A DNA stretch of 64,000 nucleotides, taken from positions 32,152 to 96,151 of IMG/VR virus record IMGVR_UViG_3300047509_000037; one strand, 5' to 3'. The DNA comes from a virus. Below the pieces are notes generated by a model. It searched no databases, was not told the origin of the DNA, and saw only the letters and a list, made by a program, of their open reading frames with translations. Below are positions 8,219-62,212 of this stretch, in pieces. Position 1 is the first letter of the stretch; the number at the start of each line of letters is the position of its first letter. The translations under genes and the position numbers were made by a program.

Positions 8219-8725
8219 ATGTTGAAATCAATGACACGCGAAGAACTGGACAGGCTGCTCGAAGTCGCCAAGCAAGAGTCCTTCATGGACTACCTGATGA
8301 TGCTCGTGACGTTTCTCCACGGGCTTCGAGTCTCCGAGACGTTGTCGCTGACAAAAGACAACATCGTCAACGGCTACATCGTCGTGAAGCGCGGCAAGGG
8401 TTCGCACAAATGCGAACATCCCCTCTTACTCACGCCGAGCGAAGCCGAGCACCTGTCCAGTATCGAAGGCAAGTTCTTCACGATGTCGCGCATCACGTTC
8501 TGGCGCAGGATGCAGAAATACGGTGCGACCGCTGGGCTGGCTCCATACCTGAGGCACCCGCACACGCTGAAGCACACGTGCGGCAGGCTGGGGTTTAAGG
8601 GCGGCATGACGGTGCCCGACCTCGTCGAGTGGCTTGGTCACAAGAATCCAGCGATGGCTCTGGTGTATTCCGCCAGTGATATTGACACGGCGTCACGAGC
8701 GTTCGCCGCTGCGGTGGGACGCTGA
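8219..8725 (+). CDS. tyrosine recombinase, catalytic domain only
   Basis: GLRVSE, K(RGKG), HPHTLKH, WLGH, Y nucleophile; 168 aa. Confidence 0.85.
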   Translation: MLKSMTREELDRLLEVAKQESFMDYLMMLVTFLHGLRVSETLSLTKDNIVNGYIVVKRGKGSHKCEHPLLLTPSEAEHLSSIEGKFFTMSRITFWRRMQKYGATAGLAPYLRHPHTLKHTCGRLGFKGGMTVPDLVEWLGHKNPAMALVYSASDIDTASRAFAAAVGR

Positions 8726-8928
8726 TGGACGGCTTGGCGTGGTTGCTCAAAGACATGAAGCCTATGCCGCCGGAAGTGAAAGAGGCATACAAGGGGACTG
8801 AGTTCACGTGTGAGTGCGGCGGGATGGTCATCCCGCAAACGATGGATGACGGCATCTGCTTTTCTTGCAAAGCAATTCTGAAACTCGCGGAATGCGAATA
8901 CGAGGAGGCTAACGATGACACCACCTAA
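8725..8928 (+). CDS. small Zn-ribbon protein
   Basis: TGATG coupling; CECGG..CFSC. Confidence 0.65.
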   Translation: MDGLAWLLKDMKPMPPEVKEAYKGTEFTCECGGMVIPQTMDDGICFSCKAILKLAECEYEEANDDTT

Positions 8929-9967
8929 AGGGCGCTACGCATGGTTTGGACCGGACGAACCCGTACACCGGGAGAAGTCGCAAATTCCGTGGGGGAGAGC
9001 AATCATCTGGTTTATTCTTGCGGCGCTGGCGGTCTGGGCGGTAGATGCCCACGGGCAAGAAAGGCTCTATGACATCGAAGACGGCACAACAGCGGTATCT
9101 CCATTCACCCAGGGGTCGAGCGGCGACCGACCGGAGACATGCGCGGTATCGCACGCGACCCAAGAACAAGTTTCGCATCTACCAGTATCGTGCGACCCGT
9201 CTTCTCAAGGTGGAATTTTCTTTGGGGTTCGAGCATTTCTGCAATCTGATTGCACAAGCGTGCCGTTACTGTGGAGACCCTGCGACGGGGATAGACCGAC
9301 TCAACAACGCCGAAGGCTACACCGCGACGAACAGCGTCCCCTGTTGCGGGATGTGCAATCGCATGAAACTCAAATGGGGCGAGGACTTGTTTCTTGCTCA
9401 AATCGAGAAGATTTATCGGCATCGGTTCATGCCGTCGCCTGTGCAATCGCTAGAACTGAAGGCTTCTTTACCAAGAGAACAAAACCCAATCGCTACAACA
9501 ATCCGGGGGACATCCGAGGGTTTGGCGAGACGCGATACGCCGGGGAGATTGGACGAGACCGATTCGGTTATGTGATTTTTAAGTCCTCAGCGTTCGGCTG
9601 GGCTGCATTGACGCGGAACCTCCAGCGCATCGTGGACGGCACGAGCACGTACTACTCGACCGACCCGACGTTCGCAGAGATTGCGAAGGCATACGCGACC
9701 GACAAACGGTGGGGCAAGAGCGTGTGCAAGATTCTCCAAATCAATCCGCGAGCAACGATGCGGGAGTACCTTGGGCTGGCTCCACTGGTGAGGATGACAT
9801 GGAACTCAAATGCGGACATCTTGAAGCGCATACTTGCACCGCTTGCGGACAGTGTCGGGCTTGTCGCCACACCTACGTTGAGCGTGCGGACGGGTGGGTT
9901 TGGTGTCGGTGTCCTAATCTCAGATGGAGGCGGGTATTACAAATCCGAAACATATCAACGACCGTAA
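8915..9967 (+). CDS. secreted lysozyme-like (NNPG-motif) protein containing an out-of-frame HNH gene
   Basis: GAGGAGG RBS; TM/signal IIWFILAALAVWAVDAHG; C-terminal AIARTEGF..NRYNNPGDIR..YVIFKS...GW.AL. Confidence 0.65.
   Translation: MTPPKGRYAWFGPDEPVHREKSQIPWGRAIIWFILAALAVWAVDAHGQERLYDIEDGTTAVSPFTQGSSGDRPETCAVSHATQEQVSHLPVSCDPSSQGGIFFGVRAFLQSDCTSVPLLWRPCDGDRPTQQRRRLHRDEQRPLLRDVQSHETQMGRGLVSCSNREDLSASVHAVACAIARTEGFFTKRTKPNRYNNPGDIRGFGETRYAGEIGRDRFGYVIFKSSAFGWAALTRNLQRIVDGTSTYYSTDPTFAEIAKAYATDKRWGKSVCKILQINPRATMREYLGLAPLVRMTWNSNADILKRILAPLADSVGLVATPTLSVRTGGFGVGVLISDGGGYYKSETYQRP
9069..9575 (+). CDS. HNH endonuclease nested in alternative frame
   Basis: CRYCGD..GIDRLNNAEGYT..NSVPCCGMCNRMK. 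Confidence 0.85.
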   Translation: MTSKTAQQRYLHSPRGRAATDRRHARYRTRPKNKFRIYQYRATRLLKVEFSLGFEHFCNLIAQACRYCGDPATGIDRLNNAEGYTATNSVPCCGMCNRMKLKWGEDLFLAQIEKIYRHRFMPSPVQSLELKASLPREQNPIATTIRGTSEGLARRDTPGRLDETDSVM

Positions 9968-10005
9968 ACGAAACACATGTCTTCGATGCGCCCAAACTTT
10001 CTTAA
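9799..10005 (+). CDS. Cys/His-rich small protein
   Basis: GAGGA RBS; KCGH..HTCTACGQCRACRH. Confidence 0.55.
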   Translation: MELKCGHLEAHTCTACGQCRACRHTYVERADGWVWCRCPNLRWRRVLQIRNISTTVNETHVFDAPKLS

Positions 10006-10460
10006 CGTACTTTCGATTAGAGAGTGGACGATACCTGAATTGCGCGAATCGAAAACTGTGTTTCGAGTGCAACCCTTTGAAGTCCGGCAAACACTACGCA
10101 GAAAGAACACCCGCCTGCGAGAAATGTGGTGCGACAGAACCTAGCGGGAAATGGTGTGACTCTTGCTACCGGAATCAACGACGGTGGGCACACAAACGTC
10201 GCGCAGTGGAACTGTTGGGCGGCAAATGTAATCGCTGCTCGTGGTCAGGACACATCGCAGGTTATGACTTCCATCATCCTGCGGACGATAAAGAATTTAC
10301 GCCGAGCCAGATGCTATCTTTCAGTTGGGAGAAATTCTGGAGTGAGGCGCAGAAGTGCGAACTACTCTGTGCGATTTGCCATCGCATCGAACACTCAAAA
10401 TTCGAGGAGGAGCCACATGAAGGGATTGAAGGAAGCAACCAAGAACCTCAAGCTAGTTGA
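9924..10460 (+). CDS. HNH endonuclease
   Basis: LLGGKCNRC..YDFHH..KCELLCAICHRIEH. Confidence 0.85.
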   Translation: MEAGITNPKHINDRKRNTCLRCAQTFLTYFRLESGRYLNCANRKLCFECNPLKSGKHYAERTPACEKCGATEPSGKWCDSCYRNQRRWAHKRRAVELLGGKCNRCSWSGHIAGYDFHHPADDKEFTPSQMLSFSWEKFWSEAQKCELLCAICHRIEHSKFEEEPHEGIEGSNQEPQAS

Positions 10461-10623
10461 CACCGACGCGATTGCCGCGAAGGGGAAGCTGGCATACCGG
10501 ATGGGCATCGAACGCCGGAACAACCCGGAGAACACACCGACCGCACGCACCGTGTGGGAGCGTGGCTGGGATGCGGCGAAGGTCGAGTTCGAGGCGATGC
10601 AACTCCGCTGGAAATCTCTGTAA
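10417..10623 (+). CDS. Rmf/CrpP-like small protein
   Basis: GAGGAGG RBS; G..AY..G..R..NP......W..GW pattern. Confidence 0.55.
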   Translation: MKGLKEATKNLKLVDTDAIAAKGKLAYRMGIERRNNPENTPTARTVWERGWDAAKVEFEAMQLRWKSL

Positions 10624-10655: not shown

Positions 10656-11003
10656 ATGTATTGGAGTTCACAATGGGAAACGATTCTGTTTCTGCTTTTC
10701 CTCGTGTCGCGCACGGGGAGAAAATTCGGAGTAATTTTGGGCATCTATCAGAAGAACCACTACGACCGACGCATGGTCGAATACCAGCGGTTGAAGTCTA
10801 AGCCGTGTCGAGATTGCAAGAAAAAGTTTCATCCGGTGTGCATGGATTGGGACCATCGACCACGCACAAAGAAACTCGCAGATGTCTCACGTTTGGTCAT
10901 CGCCCGCTGTTCGTGGAAGCGTGTCCTTGCGGAGATTAGAAAGTGTGACCTCGTGTGCGCGAACTGCCACAGACTTCGCACGTTCAGAAGGGAACAATAC
11001 TAA
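10656..11003 (+). CDS. HNH endonuclease (true start may be downstream)
   Basis: KPCRDC..MDWDH..KCDLVCANCHRLRT. Confidence 0.85.
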   Translation: MYWSSQWETILFLLFLVSRTGRKFGVILGIYQKNHYDRRMVEYQRLKSKPCRDCKKKFHPVCMDWDHRPRTKKLADVSRLVIARCSWKRVLAEIRKCDLVCANCHRLRTFRREQY

Positions 11004-36809: not shown

Positions 36810-39800
36810 CTATTCCTTGACTTTGACTATGTTCGACAGGGCATCGGTCACCTTCGAGCCTGTTGGGAAGTCCAGCGATTGATGATTCTTACCGTCCACA
36901 GTTTCGAGAACGATGCGACCATTTCGTAGTTTCCCTGCCGCTGCACGAATCTGACGTGCTTGGCTTTCAGTGATTTGTTTCGGTAGCGAGAAGACTTGCT
37001 CCTCGCCCGCACGTGACATGCGATAACGGCTACGGATGACGCCTGTGTCTTTGATGAACTGCTCACGCGTATTCTCGGTAGTTTTGCCGCCGAGCATGTG
37101 GTCGTGTTCACCAACGAGCGGAATCATGTCGCCTTCAGGTAGGATGAATCCTGCCTTCAGAACGTCTCCAGTCGTTCCATACTTCTGCTTGAGTGCGTCC
37201 GTCACTGAGCCTTCGCCAGTGCCGCCCGTTTGGATTTCGCCTTCGCCGCCGAGATGATAGACCGCCTTTTGATTGGCAGCTTTACCAGCTTTGATAGCGT
37301 CCGCACGTTTGTCATAAATCCTAGCGACATCTAACGTGTGTGCCCCCGTATCGGGGTCTTTCCACGTGCCAACAGCATGTCCGGGTTTGTTAAGAACGTC
37401 GGAGTTGATGTCTTTGAAGGCATCTATGTGGTCGGGAGTTAGTTTGCCTTTGACTTGCTGGGTTCTTTCAGGATAAGAGCCGACTGAGTATTTGTTGGCT
37501 CCCGCGAGATTGTTTCCCTGCATGTCGAAAGTCGAACCGCCCTTTTCGTTGTGCGCCGCGACCTGTTCCTCGTTCGAGAAATCCGTCGGATTGAAAGACG
37601 TGCTTTCATCTTTCAACTCACGCGTAGGTGCTTTTGTCTCAGGTAATTCATCCCCACCCATCCACGGCGGTCGAGTGAAACCCTTCGCCGCTTTCACAAT
37701 CTCTGCACGTGCTTGGTCGAGTGTCAAGTCGCCCGCCATGTGCTGGGACCAGATGCCCGTCACTGCCTTGCGGAGTTCGGGAGTCCTTTTCTCGTCGCCC
37801 ATGAGAGCCTTAACGCCTTCCCATGTTATAGATTGCAGTTCACGCGGCAAGATACCGATGCGTTTCGCTGCGTCGATATAGGCTGCGTGGTGAAGCGAGT
37901 ACATCCCCTTCTGACCCGTGGCTTTGTTCGCCGGGGCACCACCGAAGACGCCCTTGATTTCTGCGTCGTCACTACCACGAGGGATTAGCATGTCTGCGTT
38001 AGCAGCGTGCGTGTCAATCGTTGCGTGACCTTCCGGTGAGTTCGGAGAGATGATGTTGTTGTAGAAGTTCCGAATCTTGTGACCGTCACCGATGACATCG
38101 TGGATGGCGGCAGGAGTGCCGTCGCCCTTGAGCATCTCCAAGGCTTTCGCCATTGGTGCGGGCATTCCCCACTGCATGTTGAGATGTCCGCGAACGTCGC
38201 CGTTCGGAGCATACAACTCAGTTTGAGGAGCGCCGTGTGCTTGGTCTAGGATTCGCATCCACAACGCTTGCGAGAAGTTCGTCGCGTCTGGGTTCTCAGG
38301 GTCGTTGAGTTCGTCGAACGTCTTGCCACGAAGTTTGTCGAGTTCAGCGCGGAAGTCTGGTTTGATTCCCTTGCCGTTACGAATCTTCGATAGCGTGGTG
38401 TCCATCTCAGGTGACCACTCGTGACCGCGTTGGTTGACGTACATGTCAATCATACGCTTCGCCTGACCCGCGTTCACGTCCCATGCGTTCTGCGGAGAGA
38501 GCGCCGCGATAACTCCTGCGACTTTCTCTTTCGGTACGCCGTACTGGTCTGCCCACTTGATTGCCATCTGGTGAGCAGAGTCATACCAGAGTTTCGAGAT
38601 TTCACGAATCTCCGGCGGAATTTGATTGTGCAACCATTCAAGGTTGCCCGACCATCGGTCAACAACTTTCTGGAGACCCTGACGAGGATTCGCCAAGTCT
38701 TCAGGAGTCAGGTTGATTCCCAACTCAGGATACTTGTTGACTTCATCAAGCAGCTTTGCCATGTGTCCCGGCTTCAGCTTCTCAGCTTCTTCGATTGCAT
38801 CCCAGCCCGTCTTGTGTTCGGTTGGGTTGTTCTCGCCTGCGGGACGTGTGGAGATTTCACTGTCTGGGTTGTGCCCAGCGGTGACGCTGCCTTCCGGTTC
38901 GGCTTGCTTGGGGATGAAGTGCTCGACACCGCCGCCTTGTTCAGTCGGGTTGCCATCGCTATCCATCACCGGAGCGTGTTGCACATCATAGCCGCGCCGT
39001 TCGAGTTTGTTCCAGTGCCCTTCGTTCTCAGGAGAGCGGAGGTCTGGGTGGTCGGAGACGATTCGACTGTACGCGTCGGTCTTGTTCATCCGAGCGACAG
39101 CTTCGTCCATCATCTGTTGTCCAGCGCCGGGAGCATCGACTGCGGAGATGCCCGTTTGCCGGAGTTGTTTCTTGCCTTCAAACCCCGGACGCGTGTCCGC
39201 TTCAGGCTTGAGAATCATCTGGCTCGTGCCGTTCGGGTGGTCGAACTGCCATGCGCCGTCTTCACGTCGCGTGACCTTCATATCACCCGGATTGCCGCCA
39301 AGCCGCTTGACTGGCTCATTGATGTTGCGACCGACAGCGCCCTTCTCACTCGAAAGCGGAGACGCCTTGTAAGCATCGTAAGCCTTCTGGAGATAGCCCT
39401 TAAATCGTTCGGACACCGAGAGCGCCTGTGGGTTCTGGAGCGCCGCGTTGATTTCCTTTGCCGCTGGTTCGGAAGTCATGGCGTCACCGAGGAACCGAGT
39501 CATCGCCGTGGTGAGAACGTGCTCACCAACGGTCTTGCCCAGCATTGCCTCTGCGATTGCGCCGATGCCGCCGTGTCCCGCTGCGATGAACGGGATTGCC
39601 TTCGCTGCGAATTTCGCGAGCGTTCCGAACTCTGGGGAGACCTGTTGGTCTTTCAGAGTCTTGGCGAGTTCAGCCAACGTGTCGATGTGCTCTGGAGTGA
39701 AGCCAGCTTTCACAAACTGGTTCTTCTCATCAGGCATCCGGCGCAAACGGTCAATCTGTTTCGCCAGCTTGTTGCCATCGACTTGATAGCCGCCTTCCTC

Positions 39801-41183
39801 ACCCGGACCTGTCGCGCTGTCGAATGCCGTAGCAATCTTTTCCAGTGCGATAGCCTTGCGGTAGTTGCCCTTCATGGAGTCAACATCAAGACCAGCCTTA
39901 GCGAGTTCGTCGCGGTGCTTGTCGATGATTTCATCCTGAAGCGCGAGGGCTTCCTTATATTTCTGACGACCCTCAGTCGTGAAATCGTTCCGAGAGTTGT
40001 CTGCCATGTCTTGTGCGTCACTGAACGCGTTGTTGCTGACACGGTCGAGTTCCTTCATTGCGGGCACAGATTGCTCACGCATGTCGCGTGCGTGCGAACG
40101 AATGCCAAGACGGTCTTGGTCGTTGATGGTGGTCTCTGCGCGAGAGCCGACAGCTTTACCTGTGGTCTCTCCGACTGCTTGCTTGACCGCGCCTTCTGTG
40201 TTGCGTGCCGCTTCCTCGTGAACTGAGGGGTCCACTGCTTTCTGGGCTGCGTTTGCGAGTACGCCATTGCCCTCTGCGCGAACTGGAATCTGGTTGCCGT
40301 CCACGTCTTTCATCACGGGACGAACCCTCTCTTGAAGTTTCGCGCCACGTTGTGACAAGTCCTTCGCGCCCGCTGCGCCAGCTAGTGCAGCTTGACCGAG
40401 ACCGCCGAGCATCTCCTGAGTGTTCTCTGGAGTAGCGCCGTTCTCAATCATGTCCATGCCGCCGTGAGCGCCTTGGTACAGACCTTGAAGACCGAACGCA
40501 GTGCCGACGAGTGGTGACGCGACCTTGGCAATCTTACCGACCGCCTTCGCGCCTTGGACTTCCTCAGAGCCGAGTCCGAGAGTTCCGAGCGAGAGTGGGC
40601 TGGTGAATCCTGCCGCAGTGCTGGAGGTATCCGCCGCCGAACCGTTGATGAACGTGTTGACAGCCGAAGCCGCCGCCGCGTGATGGGTAAGAAATTCGCG
40701 GATTTTGTTCTTCTGGATTTTTCCGCTCTTGTCCTTTGTGAGTTCGCTTCCCGGCAAGAAGTGGTCATTCGCCTTCGTCTCGAAGTCGTTGACGCCGGGG
40801 AGATACATTTCCTGATACATCTTCTCGAACGCAGCGGCTTTGATGATGTCGCTGGTCTTCATGCCTTCAGGCAGAATGTTGTCGAAGATAGGTTGGTTGA
40901 CCCAATCCCACGCACGACGGAGCAGACCATGCTTCGCCAGTTCTTGCTTCTGCGCCAGTTCTTTCTGGGCATCAGACTGAGCCATCCCAGCTTTTGCGCC
41001 GGGAGTAAATGCGGGAGGAGCCGTGCTCACCACAGCGGAATCGACCATGTTGTCGAGTCCGCTCTTGAGACGGTCGCTGTCTGATTGCTGAGGCAGCGGT
41101 TGTTGAGTGGGTGGTTGTGAGGGAGCCGCTGGTTGAGTCGGCTGGGCTGGCTGTTTCGCCATCTGGTCTACCATGCTATCCAT
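36810..41183 (-). CDS. large polyvalent ejection protein (GNAT-like and HhH-GPD glycosylase-like domains)
   Basis: Last of the ejectosome block; GISAVDAPGAGQQMM..IVSD..SPEN..W; WY..A..AGVIAALSP..W..GHKIRNFYNNI..TIDTHA..LQSITW. Confidence 0.7.
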   Translation of the reverse strand: MDSMVDQMAKQPAQPTQPAAPSQPPTQQPLPQQSDSDRLKSGLDNMVDSAVVSTAPPAFTPGAKAGMAQSDAQKELAQKQELAKHGLLRRAWDWVNQPIFDNILPEGMKTSDIIKAAAFEKMYQEMYLPGVNDFETKANDHFLPGSELTKDKSGKIQKNKIREFLTHHAAAASAVNTFINGSAADTSSTAAGFTSPLSLGTLGLGSEEVQGAKAVGKIAKVASPLVGTAFGLQGLYQGAHGGMDMIENGATPENTQEMLGGLGQAALAGAAGAKDLSQRGAKLQERVRPVMKDVDGNQIPVRAEGNGVLANAAQKAVDPSVHEEAARNTEGAVKQAVGETTGKAVGSRAETTINDQDRLGIRSHARDMREQSVPAMKELDRVSNNAFSDAQDMADNSRNDFTTEGRQKYKEALALQDEIIDKHRDELAKAGLDVDSMKGNYRKAIALEKIATAFDSATGPGEEGGYQVDGNKLAKQIDRLRRMPDEKNQFVKAGFTPEHIDTLAELAKTLKDQQVSPEFGTLAKFAAKAIPFIAAGHGGIGAIAEAMLGKTVGEHVLTTAMTRFLGDAMTSEPAAKEINAALQNPQALSVSERFKGYLQKAYDAYKASPLSSEKGAVGRNINEPVKRLGGNPGDMKVTRREDGAWQFDHPNGTSQMILKPEADTRPGFEGKKQLRQTGISAVDAPGAGQQMMDEAVARMNKTDAYSRIVSDHPDLRSPENEGHWNKLERRGYDVQHAPVMDSDGNPTEQGGGVEHFIPKQAEPEGSVTAGHNPDSEISTRPAGENNPTEHKTGWDAIEEAEKLKPGHMAKLLDEVNKYPELGINLTPEDLANPRQGLQKVVDRWSGNLEWLHNQIPPEIREISKLWYDSAHQMAIKWADQYGVPKEKVAGVIAALSPQNAWDVNAGQAKRMIDMYVNQRGHEWSPEMDTTLSKIRNGKGIKPDFRAELDKLRGKTFDELNDPENPDATNFSQALWMRILDQAHGAPQTELYAPNGDVRGHLNMQWGMPAPMAKALEMLKGDGTPAAIHDVIGDGHKIRNFYNNIISPNSPEGHATIDTHAANADMLIPRGSDDAEIKGVFGGAPANKATGQKGMYSLHHAAYIDAAKRIGILPRELQSITWEGVKALMGDEKRTPELRKAVTGIWSQHMAGDLTLDQARAEIVKAAKGFTRPPWMGGDELPETKAPTRELKDESTSFNPTDFSNEEQVAAHNEKGGSTFDMQGNNLAGANKYSVGSYPERTQQVKGKLTPDHIDAFKDINSDVLNKPGHAVGTWKDPDTGAHTLDVARIYDKRADAIKAGKAANQKAVYHLGGEGEIQTGGTGEGSVTDALKQKYGTTGDVLKAGFILPEGDMIPLVGEHDHMLGGKTTENTREQFIKDTGVIRSRYRMSRAGEEQVFSLPKQITESQARQIRAAAGKLRNGRIVLETVDGKNHQSLDFPTGSKVTDALSNIVKVKE

Positions 41184-41200: not shown

Positions 41201-43507
41201 TTACTTCCAACCATTTTCTTTCAGAAGTTGCTTTGCCAAGTCCGCGTTCCCGTTCGCAGCGTCAACGTACATCTTGACGACCTTCTGCGATTGAGCATCT
41301 TGCGGATTCAGTTGCGTAGGATTGTTACTGTTCCACCCACGCGGCAACTCTATGGACATCGGAGCCGATTGACTCTTAATGCCGAAGTGGTTCATCACAG
41401 AGACCGCCGCCGGGGAAATAAGTCCGGGGTAGTTCTGCTTGACCGTGTTCTGGTACTTCCAACCGAGACCAGCCGCACGAGCATCGGCGGTGTTCGTGAT
41501 TGCCTTGAGCGCCGTGAGCGCCGTCTGAGCAGTCGCGTCCTTGCCGAGCACGCCTTCCATCGCACGGATGTCAGATTCGTGTTCTGCACGATTCTGGTTG
41601 AGGAAGTTCATGTATTCCTTCAACGGTGCGATGATGGTGTCTTTGAACGTCTGGTAGTTCTGGTCGTTCGCTGCGTTCTCAGCAATCCACGAGAGCGAGT
41701 GGTTGAGAAGCGGAGAACCTGAACGAACCCAAGCATCGTTCGCGTCAAGTGCTTCTGCGGTGTGCCGCATGAGCGTATCGAACGAAGACAACTGAGCGCC
41801 GATTTTGCCTTGCGGGTCGCTGTACTCTTGGAACGTCTTGGACCGGAGTTCTTGGTTGGTCAATCCGTGCGTCACAGGGTCGAGACCACGTGCCGCGGCT
41901 TTGCGCTGGAGAAGTGAATCCATCATCAAGCGTGCGCCGCCTGAGCGAATTGTCGCCAAGTCTTTTGGACTGGAGAGACCGCCGTTGAGCATACTGTCGG
42001 CTGTCTGGTCGAGCACGGCAGGGTCTCCGGTGCGGAGGTCTTCCTGCTTCTGCTTGTCGTTCACTTCCGTGATACGGCTGCCGATACGTTCCGCTTCCCC
42101 CGTGGTCAACTGGCGGTCGCCGGGAATCATGGCTTGGAGAGTCTTGCGGTCGGTCGGGTCTTTGATGTTGTTGATGGCACCGAGGATTGCATCCTGTTGA
42201 GGTTTGCCAATCGGAGCCTTATCACCAACGCCGCCTTCTTTCGCCAGAGCATTTGCACGTTGACGTTCGAGGTCGGTGTCACGCATCCAATTATCGACAT
42301 CCTCAGGCTTGCCGAGTAGGTCGAGCATCTTGCCGCCGTCCGCCGTGCCACGAATGGCGCGAAGAACGTTGTCAGTGTCTCCAGCATCAGGACGACCGTT
42401 GCCAGCCGCGAGAGCCTTCTCCGCTGTGTCAACTGCTGCCTGATATGCCGCTGGATTCTCTTTGTACGCGGCGGCGAGGTCGATGTTACCCTTCGCCTTA
42501 GGATTGATTTCTTTCTGAGCACGATTGAGGAAATGCTCAACCGACGACAGAGTGTTCGCGGTGTGGACCGCGTCCATGTATGCGTTGATTGGAACCGTGA
42601 CGTTCCCGCCAGTCAGGTCGAACGCCTTGGCGTAGCTCTTGTTGAACTTGCCGAGTTCGTCCGTGACTTCCTTAGGGAGTTTCAGGTTCGCTTTGTTGTT
42701 GATGATTGCATAGGTCGGCTCGTCTTCGAGCACGCCCGTCTGCGGGTTGGGCTTCGTAATCATGCCGTCGATGATGACGTTGTTATCCATCAACGAGTGA
42801 TTGCCCGCGAGAACTTGGTCAGCCGTCATCCCTTTGTTGAGGAAGATGCTATCAGGCATGTCGGCGGGACGGTTCTTGTCGAAGTCCATCAGGGGCTTCA
42901 AGAAGACATCGGTGTTTCGCGCAACAGTGTCCGCGAGAACTTCGTGCTTCTGGTGAGCCATTGCAGCGGCTTGCTGCACCATCTTGGAGTTGTTCTGGAA
43001 CGTCATCAGCTTTGCAGCTTGCTGGTCGTTCGTCATTTGCTGGGCTGCGTCACGACGCTTCTGCTGGAACTCAGCGCCTTTCTCAGCCGCTCCCGCCATC
43101 GTGTTAGTCGGGTCAGCGACAGGACCATACGGCGTGTTACGATACTGAGTCGGAGCCATCAGACCCGCGAGTGCGCCCGCAAGAATTGCCCGCCCCAATT
43201 GCCCCTTAGTCTGTGGGACTTCTCGGATTGCTCCGGTCGCAGGGTCAACTACTTTGACAGGTCCACCAGACATCGTCTTGAGGATATTGTTAAAAATCCC
43301 CGACATCGGATGCGGTTTCTCTGGGGTGTTCGTGACCTCTCCTGTAGGCAACTTGTCATTTTGTCCCGGCTGAGGTTGCGCCGGAGTCGCGGAAGGAAAT
43401 ACAGTTCCCGGCTGCGTGGGCTGGGTTGGTTGAGCGGGCGGTTGGTTAGGAGTGACTTGAGTCTGTGTTGAATCTGACGTAGTAGTCTGTGCTTGTGGGT
43501 CGGGCAT
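41201..43507 (-). CDS. internal virion / DNA ejection protein
   Basis: Helical Q/A-rich, hydrophobic GRAILAGALAGL segment, position in tail block. Confidence 0.6.
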   Translation of the reverse strand: MPDPQAQTTTSDSTQTQVTPNQPPAQPTQPTQPGTVFPSATPAQPQPGQNDKLPTGEVTNTPEKPHPMSGIFNNILKTMSGGPVKVVDPATGAIREVPQTKGQLGRAILAGALAGLMAPTQYRNTPYGPVADPTNTMAGAAEKGAEFQQKRRDAAQQMTNDQQAAKLMTFQNNSKMVQQAAAMAHQKHEVLADTVARNTDVFLKPLMDFDKNRPADMPDSIFLNKGMTADQVLAGNHSLMDNNVIIDGMITKPNPQTGVLEDEPTYAIINNKANLKLPKEVTDELGKFNKSYAKAFDLTGGNVTVPINAYMDAVHTANTLSSVEHFLNRAQKEINPKAKGNIDLAAAYKENPAAYQAAVDTAEKALAAGNGRPDAGDTDNVLRAIRGTADGGKMLDLLGKPEDVDNWMRDTDLERQRANALAKEGGVGDKAPIGKPQQDAILGAINNIKDPTDRKTLQAMIPGDRQLTTGEAERIGSRITEVNDKQKQEDLRTGDPAVLDQTADSMLNGGLSSPKDLATIRSGGARLMMDSLLQRKAAARGLDPVTHGLTNQELRSKTFQEYSDPQGKIGAQLSSFDTLMRHTAEALDANDAWVRSGSPLLNHSLSWIAENAANDQNYQTFKDTIIAPLKEYMNFLNQNRAEHESDIRAMEGVLGKDATAQTALTALKAITNTADARAAGLGWKYQNTVKQNYPGLISPAAVSVMNHFGIKSQSAPMSIELPRGWNSNNPTQLNPQDAQSQKVVKMYVDAANGNADLAKQLLKENGWK

Positions 43508-55677: not shown

Positions 55678-56751
55678 CTAGATGCCCCAAGGACCGTAAG
55701 GTTGCGCGGGGTTGACTGAGTTGTACGCCCAGCCTGTTTCCATAACGTTTGACATCGGGACAAAGCCCCAATCATCTTGTTCGCGGCTGCCCTGACGAAC
55801 TGCGTTGTCGAGCGCCTGCATCCACAGCTTGAACTCCATGTCGAACTTCGTTCGCAGCTTCGGGTCAGGAGAGAACCGATAGCATTGCGCGAAGAAGCCC
55901 GTCTTGATGTAGGAGAAGTAGTCGTCTGGGATTGGTTCGATGAACTGGTTCAGCTTTGTGAACTGTTGAATCTTTGCCTGTCCAATCGGAGCAATCTGCC
56001 ACACGGGTCCAGTCTGAGAAGGACCGGGGTAGATGCGGAATCCGGCTGCCTTGGGGTTGATAGCGGTCCAAGTGACACTGCCGTCCGTCACGGTCGTTGC
56101 GACGGTAGATGGTTTGGCGAGTGTTGGGAAAACAGGATTCAGGTTCGAAAGGAAGGGGTTCGTGTTGCCACACGTTCCATACGTCGTGACCAACCACAGG
56201 TTGCCGAAAGAATCTTGGACCTGAGTGATGGGGTTGGACGGCATGGACGTTGCGCCGAGCGGACTCGTATAAACCGCGCCGGGACCGGGGTTTTGGATTC
56301 CGGTAAGAGAGTTGATTTGCGAGACGCCCCACGTTCCGAACGTCATCGTGTCGTTCTGCATCCACGCGATGCGGGCGTTGTTGCTTCCGGTGGTTTGCAG
56401 GCTGGTGATAAGAACGTCGCGCCGCACATCGACTACCGCGAAGGGTTTCGGGTATTGTGTCGAGCTAGTGTTCCACGCCCCGCAACTTTCGAGCCAGCCA
56501 AGATTGACCACGTTCGATGCGTAATCTTGCTGCCACGAGTTGATGAAGAAAGGCGGAATGATGATGCGGTTGAACTTGAAATTGAACGGAGACCCTTTGG
56601 AACTCCCCGCCAGCATCGCGGTCATCGCGTCATTGATTGCGGAGAGTGCAACCGTTTCGTAAGCGCCGCCCGTTGGGAGGGTCGGTGCGAGGTCGCCCAT
56701 TGCGCGGGCGATGTCCACGAGGTTCTGCACAGTGTAGCTGGAGTTTCCCAT
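55678..56751 (-). CDS. head-tail adaptor protein (paralog 1)
   Basis: TVQ..ALSAIN..PFNFKFN..QQDY..RIYP.P..QF..PIPDDY. Confidence 0.65.
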   Translation of the reverse strand: MGNSSYTVQNLVDIARAMGDLAPTLPTGGAYETVALSAINDAMTAMLAGSSKGSPFNFKFNRIIIPPFFINSWQQDYASNVVNLGWLESCGAWNTSSTQYPKPFAVVDVRRDVLITSLQTTGSNNARIAWMQNDTMTFGTWGVSQINSLTGIQNPGPGAVYTSPLGATSMPSNPITQVQDSFGNLWLVTTYGTCGNTNPFLSNLNPVFPTLAKPSTVATTVTDGSVTWTAINPKAAGFRIYPGPSQTGPVWQIAPIGQAKIQQFTKLNQFIEPIPDDYFSYIKTGFFAQCYRFSPDPKLRTKFDMEFKLWMQALDNAVRQGSREQDDWGFVPMSNVMETGWAYNSVNPAQPYGPWGI

Positions 56752-56862
56752 AGGTTCCTTTGAAAGTTAATCGGAGGTTTATGCGCCTTCGCCTCCGTAC
56801 ACGAGCGGCGTCCGTCATCAGCCCGAAAGCCCTAAGACACGACGCTGGCACTCGCTTGCAAC

Positions 56863-59998: not shown

Positions 59999-61027
59999 TT
60001 AGCTGATTGCAGACGCAGCGTCGATTTGACGCATACGGATTGTAGTGTCGGGACCGAGTGACGTAGTAAAATGTACGCGATACGCAGTCCACCCCGGAAT
60101 CAAACCTTCGGGGTCTGCAACACTCGGTGCGGCGTTCTGCACGATGTTGCAGGAGATGTTGCGCCAGTCGCCATCACCGTAAGCAGTGTCCTGCTTGGCT
60201 CCGAGGTTGATGGAGAAGATACCATCGCGCCCGAAGATGTAGGTGCGGAGAGCCGTCAGACCAGTCACCCCTTGGAAGTTCGAGGTCTTGGTCACGAGGT
60301 TCGTCTGGAAGAACCGAACGCCGCTGGTCGGCAGTTCAATCTGTTCCATCAAATCCACGCTGACGAGTTCGTCCATGCGTTGCTGACCCTCGACAGTGTG
60401 CTTCAGAATGTCGATAGGGCTGTCGTTGCTGTTGTCAGCCAGCACGTCGCCAAGGGCGAACGGGTGGATAACTCCGGCGAACGCTTTCCCGCCGTCGAAC
60501 GGCATGACCGAGCGACCCGCAAGCGACTGAACGCTGTTACGGATTTGGCTCAGGGAAAGAGCGGTGAAGCTGGAAGTGCTGGAAGCAGCCAGTTTCACGA
60601 GCACGGATGCGTCAATGCTGTTCGCGCCGTCAGCAGTTGCACGGACGAGAGCAGACAGGGACTCACCGAGGCGGTACGACATTTCCTTCGCGCAATTCTC
60701 GACGGTGTTGTCAATCGCCGTAGCGAGGGACAGAGACGAGAAGTTGGCGTAGTCAGCGTACTCACCAATGGTCGCGGTCGTGGTCAGCACGTTGAGGCTG
60801 AGGGACGAACCGACGGTGCCTTCGGTTGCTTGGACAGTGTTGGCTGCCAGAGGAACGTACATGTACAATTCGTACTGGTTGCCGCTGCCCACAGGCAGTT
60901 CGAGGCGCTCCGAGCAACGGATGAACGGAGTGTTTGCCTTCAGGTTCTCACGGAACTTTTTGTCGTAATACTTCACCGTGGACTGGGGCAGGTTAGAAAG
61001 CTGGTTTCCTGCGGGAGAAAAACTCAT
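59999..61027 (-). CDS. major capsid protein (HK97 fold, N4-gp56-like)
   Basis: YYDKKF..L, TEGT..TIGEYADY..S, GVIHP...D, GVRF.QT; follows scaffold; strong codon bias. Confidence 0.85.
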   Translation of the reverse strand: MSFSPAGNQLSNLPQSTVKYYDKKFRENLKANTPFIRCSERLELPVGSGNQYELYMYVPLAANTVQATEGTVGSSLSLNVLTTTATIGEYADYANFSSLSLATAIDNTVENCAKEMSYRLGESLSALVRATADGANSIDASVLVKLAASSTSSFTALSLSQIRNSVQSLAGRSVMPFDGGKAFAGVIHPFALGDVLADNSNDSPIDILKHTVEGQQRMDELVSVDLMEQIELPTSGVRFFQTNLVTKTSNFQGVTGLTALRTYIFGRDGIFSINLGAKQDTAYGDGDWRNISCNIVQNAAPSVADPEGLIPGWTAYRVHFTTSLGPDTTIRMRQIDAASAIS

Positions 61028-61048
61028 GTGAGTTTATCCTTGTTTGGT

Positions 61049-62212
61049 TTAGACAGTGGCTCCTGACTTCACTGCGCGGGCTTTTGCCGCTTCAGCTTCG
61101 AGCCTGTTGACCGTCTTCTGGAACTCCGGGTCACGGAGCGCCGCACGGTACTGCTCTGAAGTCATTCTGTCAATGTCTCGCAGAGTAATCGAAGACCCTC
61201 CTACTCCGGGCGTTGTGACGCCGGATGAGGCTGAAGAAATTGATTCATTCAACCCTGAGGGTACGTGACTCTGTCGCTTTGCTTGCGCCTGCGGTTGCGT
61301 CCCCAATCCGGGGGTCGTCGCTGGCAGTGCCTGCGGGTTCGGCACTTCTAGTTCCACGGGCACAACGGCAGCGGGGGCTGCGGTCGGCACGAGTGATACC
61401 TGTTGCACATCAGGTGCTTCTTTGAGCAATCCGGCTCCAGAAAGCGTGTCTTGGGCGAGTTTGAAATTTGCTACGGTCGGAGCGAGGTTTCGCTTGCCCA
61501 TCCAACGCGTAACGATTTCACGGTTCTCCGGCGAGTCAACATAACCCGAACCGGAGTTCACAAAGTCGATGTAGTTCTCGACAGCGCGATTCTGAATGAG
61601 GCTGCGTTGCACTTCATTCAGCGTGTTGGCGACAACCGAAGGCTTCTGACCGAAGACCGACTCAATCAGCTTGTCGGTTGCGCTCGCGGTCGTCTCAGGA
61701 TTCACGAGTTCGCGGGCGATAGTGAACCGCTCATCCGGCGTCAAATCGCGGGACTTGAACTCAGGAACATTCTGAAAACGTTCTGCGGTATCGGGAACTG
61801 CTTCCTCGACGCCGAGCGCCTTCTCGCGGGAGACCTTACGAAGCTGGCGCAGAATCAATTCGTTCTGCTTGACCAGTTTGGTCGTGAGTTCATCCGGCGT
61901 TTTATAGATAATAACTTGCTTCCCACCGAGCGGGCGTCCATCAGCATCCATCGGCTGATACTCGTAACGCTGGTCGGGGAGTTCCGCAACCGGGGCTGCG
62001 ACTACGGGAGTCGGTGCCGGAGTGGGAACAATCGCGGGCGATGCGCCTGCGGGGGTTTCTTCGATGATGATGGTTTCACCATTCGCACGGGCAGCGGCTT
62101 CTTTGTAGAGCCGCTCAACCGTTGCGGAAAAATCGGGGTTGCTCCGAAGGTTCTCTTTGTATTCTTCGGAAGTCATCTTGTTTACTGCGTCGAGCGTGAT
62201 AGGTGTAGACAT
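61049..62212 (-). CDS. capsid scaffolding protein
   Basis: Between portal and capsid; Pro/Ala linkers; C-terminal IDRMTSEQYR helix. Confidence 0.75.
   Translation of the reverse strand: MSTPITLDAVNKMTSEEYKENLRSNPDFSATVERLYKEAAARANGETIIIEETPAGASPAIVPTPAPTPVVAAPVAELPDQRYEYQPMDADGRPLGGKQVIIYKTPDELTTKLVKQNELILRQLRKVSREKALGVEEAVPDTAERFQNVPEFKSRDLTPDERFTIARELVNPETTASATDKLIESVFGQKPSVVANTLNEVQRSLIQNRAVENYIDFVNSGSGYVDSPENREIVTRWMGKRNLAPTVANFKLAQDTLSGAGLLKEAPDVQQVSLVPTAAPAAVVPVELEVPNPQALPATTPGLGTQPQAQAKRQSHVPSGLNESISSASSGVTTPGVGGSSITLRDIDRMTSEQYRAALRDPEFQKTVNRLEAEAAKARAVKSGATV

Follow-up and report, generated by a model that had tools for sequence, protein, structure and literature searches.

The locus and its two reading frames

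The window, i.e., the whole stretch of DNA analysed here, comprises the final 64 kb of a 96,151-bp IMG/VR virus record, and at 8915-9967 it holds a single unbroken frame with an ATG start and 350 aa (ORF A), whose product combines a signal/TM helix, a long linker and a domain resembling peptidoglycan hydrolases. A second gene (ORF B), in the +1 frame of the first, occupies the linker region and runs on into the hydrolase domain. The features of the locus, all of them on the plus strand, are the following:

8902-8908, plus strand: Shine-Dalgarno sequence of ORF A, GAGGAGG, read from the sequence, 6 nt 5' of the ATG
8915-9967, plus strand: ORF A, the host gene, 350 aa, with signal/TM helix, shadow linker of ~120 aa and GH73-like peptidoglycan hydrolase domain
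8990-9055, plus strand: signal-anchor or signal-peptide helix, residues 26-47 (AlphaFold2 pLDDT ~93 and alignment with homologue P0003)
~9044-9418, plus strand: cassette inserted relative to the HNH-less homologue P0003; a poorly conserved stop-free linker in frame A, the body of the HNH gene in the +1 frame
9045-9575, plus strand: ORF B, 176 aa, a PacI-like HNH (His-Me finger) homing-endonuclease-like gene (ORF list, phrog and PacI matches)
9261-9359, plus strand: HNH core of ORF B, CxxC ... DR ... N ... CCxxCN (alignment A6 and PacI 3ldy)
9404-9814, plus strand: lysozyme-like (GH73-like) hydrolase domain, residues 164-300 (AlphaFold2 pLDDT 93-98, structural matches and invariant columns)
9419-9575, plus strand: true dual-coding stretch, where the C-terminal tail of the HNH protein lies over hydrolase helix 1, Glu182 (9458-9460) and NPGD (9500-9511)

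The AlphaFold2 model of ORF A, built from 57 sequences, contains the TM/signal helix (26-47) and the domain (164-300, pLDDT 93-98), separated by residues 48-163, which are unstructured at pLDDT 35-50, so that the shadow linker is predicted to be disordered. In the alignments, the family-invariant residues E182, G183, R193, N196, P197, G198 and D199 are all kept in the hydrolase domain of the window. Searched by structure, this domain has peptidoglycan glycosidases of the GH73/lysozyme-like kind as its top eight VIA matches, AtlA, TM0633, Ecd09610, LytB, Enc34 and FlgJ among them, with modest Z scores of 5.7-6.9. The best Foldseek match is the Enc34 endolysin, with a probability of 0.98 but an E value of 0.14, and against the PDB there was no Foldseek match of the domain at E<=0.001. 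ORF A also has a weak match to phrog_873, "endolysin" (E 1.5e-4), and neither ORF A nor ORF B matched Pfam. The domain is called here a GH73-like cell-wall hydrolase by its predicted fold and its context, with membership of that family unproven.

ORF B may start at the ATG at 9045 or at an alternative ATG at 9069, behind GAAAGG (9059-9064), and its TGA stop (9573-9575) lies within the sequence of the host domain. It matches phage HNH/endonuclease VII families (phrog_1035, E 3e-13), isolated phages carry homologues annotated as HNH or endonuclease VII, and a three-sequence profile matches the HNH restriction enzyme PacI (3ldy, E 1.3e-5). The core residues, in ORF B numbering, are C73, C76, D84, R85, N96, C100/101, C104 and N105; the cysteines and the two asparagines are invariant in alignment A6 and align to PacI 3ldy and 4h9d. 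The canonical first His of the HNH motif is absent and D84-R85 stands there, as in PacI (GVDR), which matches a PacI-like subgroup, to judge by sequence, rather than a classical HNH. The AlphaFold2 model of ORF B, obtained from 3 sequences, is poor (mean pLDDT 48), and the C-terminal tail in the dual-coding stretch is of low confidence and varies in length between loci. The nested frame is seldom annotated by gene callers, which probably explains why a protein homologue search with ORF B gave a single weak match.

GC3 marks frame B as coding in 9069-9430 (0.64 vs 0.47) and frame A in 9431-9967 (0.64 vs 0.52), the coding frame switching at ~9430. The automatic gene call on the record (P0001, 131 aa) starts the hydrolase at a GTG at 9572 (9572-9967), overlapping the HNH stop (ATGTGA). 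As the catalytic Glu182 and the NPGD motif are missing from it, this start is an annotation artefact of the nested layout, by which the hydrolase has been reduced to a fragment without its catalytic residues.

As for the neighbourhood, the hydrolase gene is located in a cluster of homing-endonuclease-like genes. Two more free-standing HNH genes lie directly downstream, at 9924-10460 (phrog_2255, E 6e-22) and 10656-11003 (phrog_3106, E 5e-24); the former shares 44 nt with the 3' end of ORF A, and its GC3 is atypically flat (0.49). An ORF of 165 aa at 10126-10623 is mostly a shadow of that same HNH gene, and its last ~68 codons (from the ATG at ~10417) have the appearance of a genuine small gene that overlaps the 3' end of the HNH gene. 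A short tyrosine-recombinase-like ORF of 168 aa (Pfam Phage_integrase, E 2e-19) immediately precedes the locus, at 8219-8725.

Insert boundaries and HNH-less homologues

The limits of the insert become apparent in the alignment with P0003, the closest HNH-less homologue, of 187 aa and 56-59% identity. There the helix ends in ...WAVDCYAQ and is directly joined to SVHDVANAIARTEG, whereas the window protein reads ...WAVDAHGQ, then ~120 aa, and then SVHAVACAIARTEG. The insert comprises ~375 nt, is clean, in-frame and a multiple of three, and begins at the SD/ATG of the nuclease, while ORF B extends 157 nt beyond the other boundary into the hydrolase domain.

This compact arrangement is the usual one in the family. 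An exhaustive profile-free search found 619 homologues of ORF A, most of them of 150-250 aa, and in most the match to ORF A residues ~169-300 starts at residue 25-30 of the homologue. At the DNA level, 160 loci were collected from IMG/VR and JGI metagenomes, which were scanned with patterns based on alignments of the hydrolase domain (a scan with a single domain protein gave none), a procedure that is independent of the openness of the host frame. In ~150 of the 160 the signal peptide is fused straight to the domain or the gene belongs to a signal-less subfamily, part of the wider hydrolase family having no signal peptide, and at none of them was a separate TM ORF found next to a hydrolase ORF.

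For the window's own phage, no empty allele was found at the DNA level, the nearest being the 56-59% identical protein. The sequencing runs listed with the locus included none of RNA; their DNA contigs contained no joints, hence neither an empty allele nor a spliced form, and they say nothing for or against expression. An independent soil run yielded an identical contig spanning the 3' junction (9127-9456). A freshwater metagenome run, X4, contains a 172-nt contig (9108-9279) wholly within the HNH gene, with one mismatch, the remaining locus being unseen in that run. A further homologue seen as protein only, P0011 (187 aa), looks empty and, where the signal peptide meets the domain, contains ~15 odd residues (…HARPKDPCSSPSAAP…); these resemble the start of the type-2 nucleases described below, MPYKDP, and may represent an excision scar.

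These data bear out the architecture proposed in a preliminary description of this DNA. The 350-aa ORF with a signal/TM segment and a lysozyme-like domain is there as described (helix to nt 9055, domain from ~9404), and the ~120 linker codons are indeed the alternative reading of an intact HNH gene, that is, ORF B from 9045 or 9069 to 9575. The P0003 alignment agrees with the claim that the host frame is unbroken, with both flanks in frame. The overlap of the HNH gene with the hydrolase domain, put at 145 nt in that description, measures 157 nt here from the insert boundary. The expected HNH-less orthologues, with a signal peptide directly fused to the AIARTEG domain, have been found in P0003 and in ~150 of the 160 loci, and the opposite arrangement, in which the TM peptide and the hydrolase would be encoded by separate genes, appears in none of the 160.

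Other filled alleles and mobility of the cassette

The same layout is repeated at five other full-length loci (L082, L014, L084, L086 and L104), all with a nuclease at the same site, in the same +1 frame and with its own SD. Two types of nuclease are involved. That of L082 is the same PacI-like HNH as in the window (type 1), at 48% identity. That of L014 matches Pfam Endonuclease_7 (E 3e-19) and is unrelated to the window HNH, and those of L084, L086 and L104 (type 2, with L014) share 38-53% identity with it or among themselves. BLASTP between type-1 and type-2 nucleases found no similarity. A seventh locus (L161:344-964) holds a decayed cassette, with a 52-aa Endonuclease VII remnant in which the N- and C-termini are joined and the catalytic core is deleted, and its host frame is open. 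With this one, the layout recurs at six loci besides the window, and it is also counted in three homologues known at the protein level alone. Homologous shadow peptides stand at the same site in six protein sequences (P0002, P0017, P0033, P0047, P0056 and P0068), and their similarity suggests nested ORFs in the first five; P0156, a longer member of the P0068 cluster, is the product of L086, and P0009 that of L082. Finally, at L023:1997-2632 an Endonuclease VII gene related to the type-2 cassettes is free-standing, ~300 nt upstream of an uninterrupted hydrolase gene.

Filled and empty alleles occur as close sisters. Between the filled L014 and the empty L012, identity is 99% across 491 nt of upstream flank and 92% downstream, and in L014 the nuclease ORF, with 23 nt on its 5' side and 14 nt on its 3' side (532 nt in all), stands in place of 85 nt; a recoded first helix of the domain belongs to the replaced segment. 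P0153 (empty) and P0056/P0152 (filled) share one 90% cluster, and the latter keep the old helix 1 upstream of the insert and a diverged copy of it downstream. On a maximum-likelihood tree of 54 hydrolase domains the filled alleles are scattered, and five of them have an empty sister with starred support: window-P0003 (100/95), P0056-P0153 (100/99), L086-P0006 (100/98), L104-P0048 (97/93) and L082 (98/92); L014-L012 is a sixth filled-empty pair (99/66). From these pairs, and above all from the one with 99% identical upstream DNA, it follows that the cassette is mobile. Furthermore, P0002, with a PacI-like cassette, and L084, with an Endonuclease VII cassette, are identical in their signal peptide and nearly so in the distal domain, and therefore two nucleases alternate at one site of one host allele. 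Such matched filled, empty and decayed alleles provide the material for testing homing and translation-through.

Stop avoidance in the host frame

Is the open host frame a matter of chance? With the HNH protein fixed and the codon usage of the genome, 4.6 frame-A stops are expected over the 117 insert codons (P(0) = 0.004), and with its own synonymous codons permuted, 5.3-7.3 are expected (P(0) = 0.0002-0.0003). Across 38 genes of the same genome, that relative frame is stop-free in 2.8% of 117-codon windows and in 0.4% of 176-codon windows. Taken as a single case, the open frame is thus unusual, not overwhelming, and it is the replication that makes it decisive. Each of the other five full-length loci has 0 host-frame stops against 4.2-6.4 expected, with P values of 0.0002-0.003 each that are not fully independent, the nested loci sharing ancestry within each nuclease type. 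Adding the decayed cassette, 7/7 nested loci are stop-free in the host frame. For the filled proteins from the protein database, ascertainment depended in part on the open frame itself, unlike for the 160 DNA loci, which form a modest census.

The comparison with free-standing relatives points in the same direction. Among 40 full-length IMG/VR relatives of the Endonuclease VII type, the nested one alone is stop-free in that frame and the others have 2-34 stops; for the PacI-like type, 17 of 17 full-length relatives, many of them AT-richer, have 13-118. Taken together, 6 full-length nested cassettes contain 0 stops, vs 2-118 in 56 full-length free-standing relatives. The preliminary description had named two observations that would speak for or against it, namely stop-codon avoidance in the shadow frame among homologous HNHs and an open shadow frame that is commonplace at this codon usage; the former proves in these counts to be specific to nested copies, and the latter does not agree with the simulations (P(0) 0.0002-0.004) or with the share of stop-free windows in the genome's own genes (0.4-2.8%).

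The way in which stops are avoided can be read from the codons. In the +1 layout, a host-frame stop needs an HNH codon ending in T before a codon starting with AA, AG or GA, which means that every such stop is avoidable by synonymous changes (T-to-C) in the nuclease frame. Across the six full-length cassettes, T-ending codons at these risky pairs number 0/257, compared with 14-26% at other positions. Set against the many stops of the free-standing relatives, this is the clearest quantitative sign so far of a selected open frame. Within the insert, protein-level selection acts on the HNH frame, whose conservation far exceeds that of the host frame (BLOSUM scores 275 vs 80, 380 vs 117, etc.), and therefore the latter is merely kept open, not conserved as protein.

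On the other hand, an HNH insertion might have inactivated the hydrolase, leaving a decaying gene whose frame is open by coincidence at this GC content. At 56% GC the window does abound in long shadow ORFs, and 2.8% of the same-strand 117-codon windows in the genome's own genes are stop-free. We nevertheless regard this explanation as extremely unlikely: the stop-free state recurs in two nuclease families and in six full-length cassettes, despite their divergence to 38-53% protein identity (P 0.0002-0.003 each), it is absent from the 56 full-length free-standing relatives, and the catalytic residues are invariant across the filled alleles.

Antisense shadow ORFs are a related feature of this DNA: very long ones (312-601 aa) lie opposite large structural genes at 38421-40226, 42533-43471, 55777-56763 and 60071-61066. 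Since they are common in the window, the same-strand frame was tested directly.

Expression of the two frames

The explanation that we consider probable is that of a mobile homing-endonuclease cassette overprinted in the hydrolase gene, whose frame would be read through unspliced. The cassette would consist of its own ribosome-binding site and an HNH ORF in the +1 frame, placed between the signal peptide and the catalytic domain. Ribosomes starting at 8915 would traverse it in the host frame and produce the signal peptide, a disordered shadow linker of ~120 residues and an intact GH73-like domain, with no splicing involved; given that the insertion site is a natural hinge, the hydrolase may well remain exported and active. 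The HNH nuclease would come from ribosomes that initiate at the internal SD/ATG (9045 or 9069), and its gene, bringing no stop of its own, would end 157 nt into the host domain. The nuclease, if active, would cut empty alleles in co-infecting relatives, and repair would copy the cassette in, while the host frame would be kept open by selection acting on nothing but the choice among synonymous codons of the HNH gene.

Homing endonucleases usually reside in introns or inteins, which raises the question of whether the insert is removed by an unrecognised intron, an intein-like element or a long-range ribosomal bypass, the linker then being absent from the mature hydrolase. The lack of a match to known ribozyme families is no proof that there is no intron, and the authors who described the comparable ShiLan insertion also leave splicing formally open (PMC11855218). 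The preliminary description had noted that there is no room for a group I intron core and no intein motif, and Rfam, RNA folding and Pfam are indeed all blank: there is no Rfam match at E<=1 in 8600-10100 and no intron core, shuffled versions of the insert RNA fold just as well (z = 0.29), and no Hint/intein domain is matched in ORF A at E<=0.1 in Pfam. The insert begins with A-H-G-Q-E and ends with D-L-S-A, whereas the splicing blocks of inteins have Cys/Ser/Thr as first residue and a terminal His-Asn, and it is predicted to be unstructured. Moreover, there is no room for a ribozyme core, because the cassette is almost wholly ORF B (in L014, 23 nt precede and 14 nt follow the nuclease ORF). 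Removal of the insert is also disfavoured by the stop codons, since after splicing or bypass host-frame stops would be free of selection, yet they are avoided at every locus. All this makes such a removal very unlikely.

Some other arrangements were considered and rejected. A bypass of the T4 gene-60 type covers 50 nt and requires the take-off codon to be followed by a stop, and the stretch here is of 375 nt and open. A frameshift that fuses the signal peptide to the HNH protein is at odds with the SD and ATG that every cassette has of its own. Lastly, a free-standing homing endonuclease that splits its host gene does not fit the single unbroken ORF of 7/7 loci or the lack of any split arrangement among the 160.

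The gene could also be split functionally, with the hydrolase being made from an internal start, such as the ATG at 9374 (Met154), without a signal peptide, and the TM segment with its shadow as a by-product. That ATG is in frame and lies 45 nt 5' of the domain, and both the signal-less part of the family and the automatic gene call, with its downstream GTG at 9572, speak for it. However, the ATG at 9374 has no SD, a start at 9572 would remove Glu182 and the NPGD motif, and every empty sister allele has its signal peptide fused to the domain. An internal restart would, besides, give no reason for ~120 stop-free upstream codons in six diverged cassettes. Hence this possibility appears very improbable too.

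A more far-reaching reading of the read-through cassettes, to which we give an even chance, is that they constitute a guild of specialised homing endonucleases, adapted to life in genes that are translated through them without splicing. Two unrelated domains, a PacI-like HNH and an Endonuclease VII, behind a similar MP.K... N-terminus would have converged on one hinge site and on the +1 frame, would bring along a copy of the host domain's first helix that is immune and would replace one another in near-identical alleles. If this were true, the hinges of secreted phage proteins would be a general and unannotated niche for selfish nucleases, and gene callers would systematically mis-annotate nested cassettes, as has happened on this record.

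Comparison with known systems

The closest known case is the ShiLan domain, described together with Pacc40 gp60 as hidden out-of-frame HNH insertions in the DNA methylases of actinobacteriophages (Arsenault, Gosselin & Gogarten 2025, PMC11855218). In ShiLan, published in February 2025, the host frame is likewise without stops, the HNH is encoded out of frame with it, and neither an intron nor an intein could be identified (PMC11855218). The idea put forward in the preliminary description, i.e., that a homing endonuclease can inhabit a gene without splicing by overprinting it, is thus upheld by the layout, the stop avoidance and the empty orthologues, although its principle had already been published, and the translation of the linker would still follow only by implication.

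Both systems have in common an insertion that some close homologues have and others lack and that brings no host-frame stop with it, a host-frame product that is featureless and predicted to be disordered, an HNH nuclease in the alternative frame, and no intron or intein signature. In both, a related nuclease is found elsewhere as a free-standing gene just upstream of the host gene (Tiff81/Sashimi there, L023 here). This likeness is one of layout, not the result of a sequence comparison, and there are several differences. The host is a methylase there and a secreted GH73-like cell-wall hydrolase here, a clearly different family; the site is a run of conserved catalytic residues there and the hinge between signal peptide and domain here. 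The ShiLan nuclease is in the third frame and starts at a GTG without RBS, for which leaderless initiation was proposed, whereas here it is in the second frame (+1), with a clear SD before the ATG. In addition, the nuclease frame here stays open to the end of the insert and covers up to 157 nt of the catalytic domain as well, the site is occupied by one or the other of two unrelated nuclease families, the PacI-like and the Endonuclease VII type, and stop avoidance has been quantified.

Inteins with an out-of-frame homing endonuclease have been described as well (bioRxiv 10.1101/2025.01.02.630785; 10.64898/2026.09.14.751524). In these, the nuclease is reportedly likewise overprinted in another frame of an in-frame insertion; the host-frame product, however, splices itself out, whereas the present insert lacks a Hint domain and would not be expected to splice.

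Two other systems share one side of the arrangement each. In phage Aeh1, mobE is said to be a free-standing homing endonuclease gene that splits its host gene nrdA into two ORFs, whose products reportedly reassemble. It resembles the present case in that a nuclease gene with neither intron nor intein sits within a coding gene, with function retained there, and differs from it in that the host ORF is here a single one and would be read through. The Rickettsia palindromic elements and others like them are mobile elements translated in-frame within host proteins, with no gene of their own. In both these elements and the cassettes, selfish DNA is apparently tolerated as an innocuous peptide insert; here, the insert also encodes a nuclease of its own in another frame.

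The comparison supports as new the host gene, the insertion logic and the two competing nucleases, the principle itself being already published (PMC11855218). This third way for a homing endonuclease to inhabit a gene, with no intron and no intein, would therefore not be confined to the methylases of actinophages, and read-through residence would be found in soil phages too, with a secreted enzyme as host and two different nucleases as residents.
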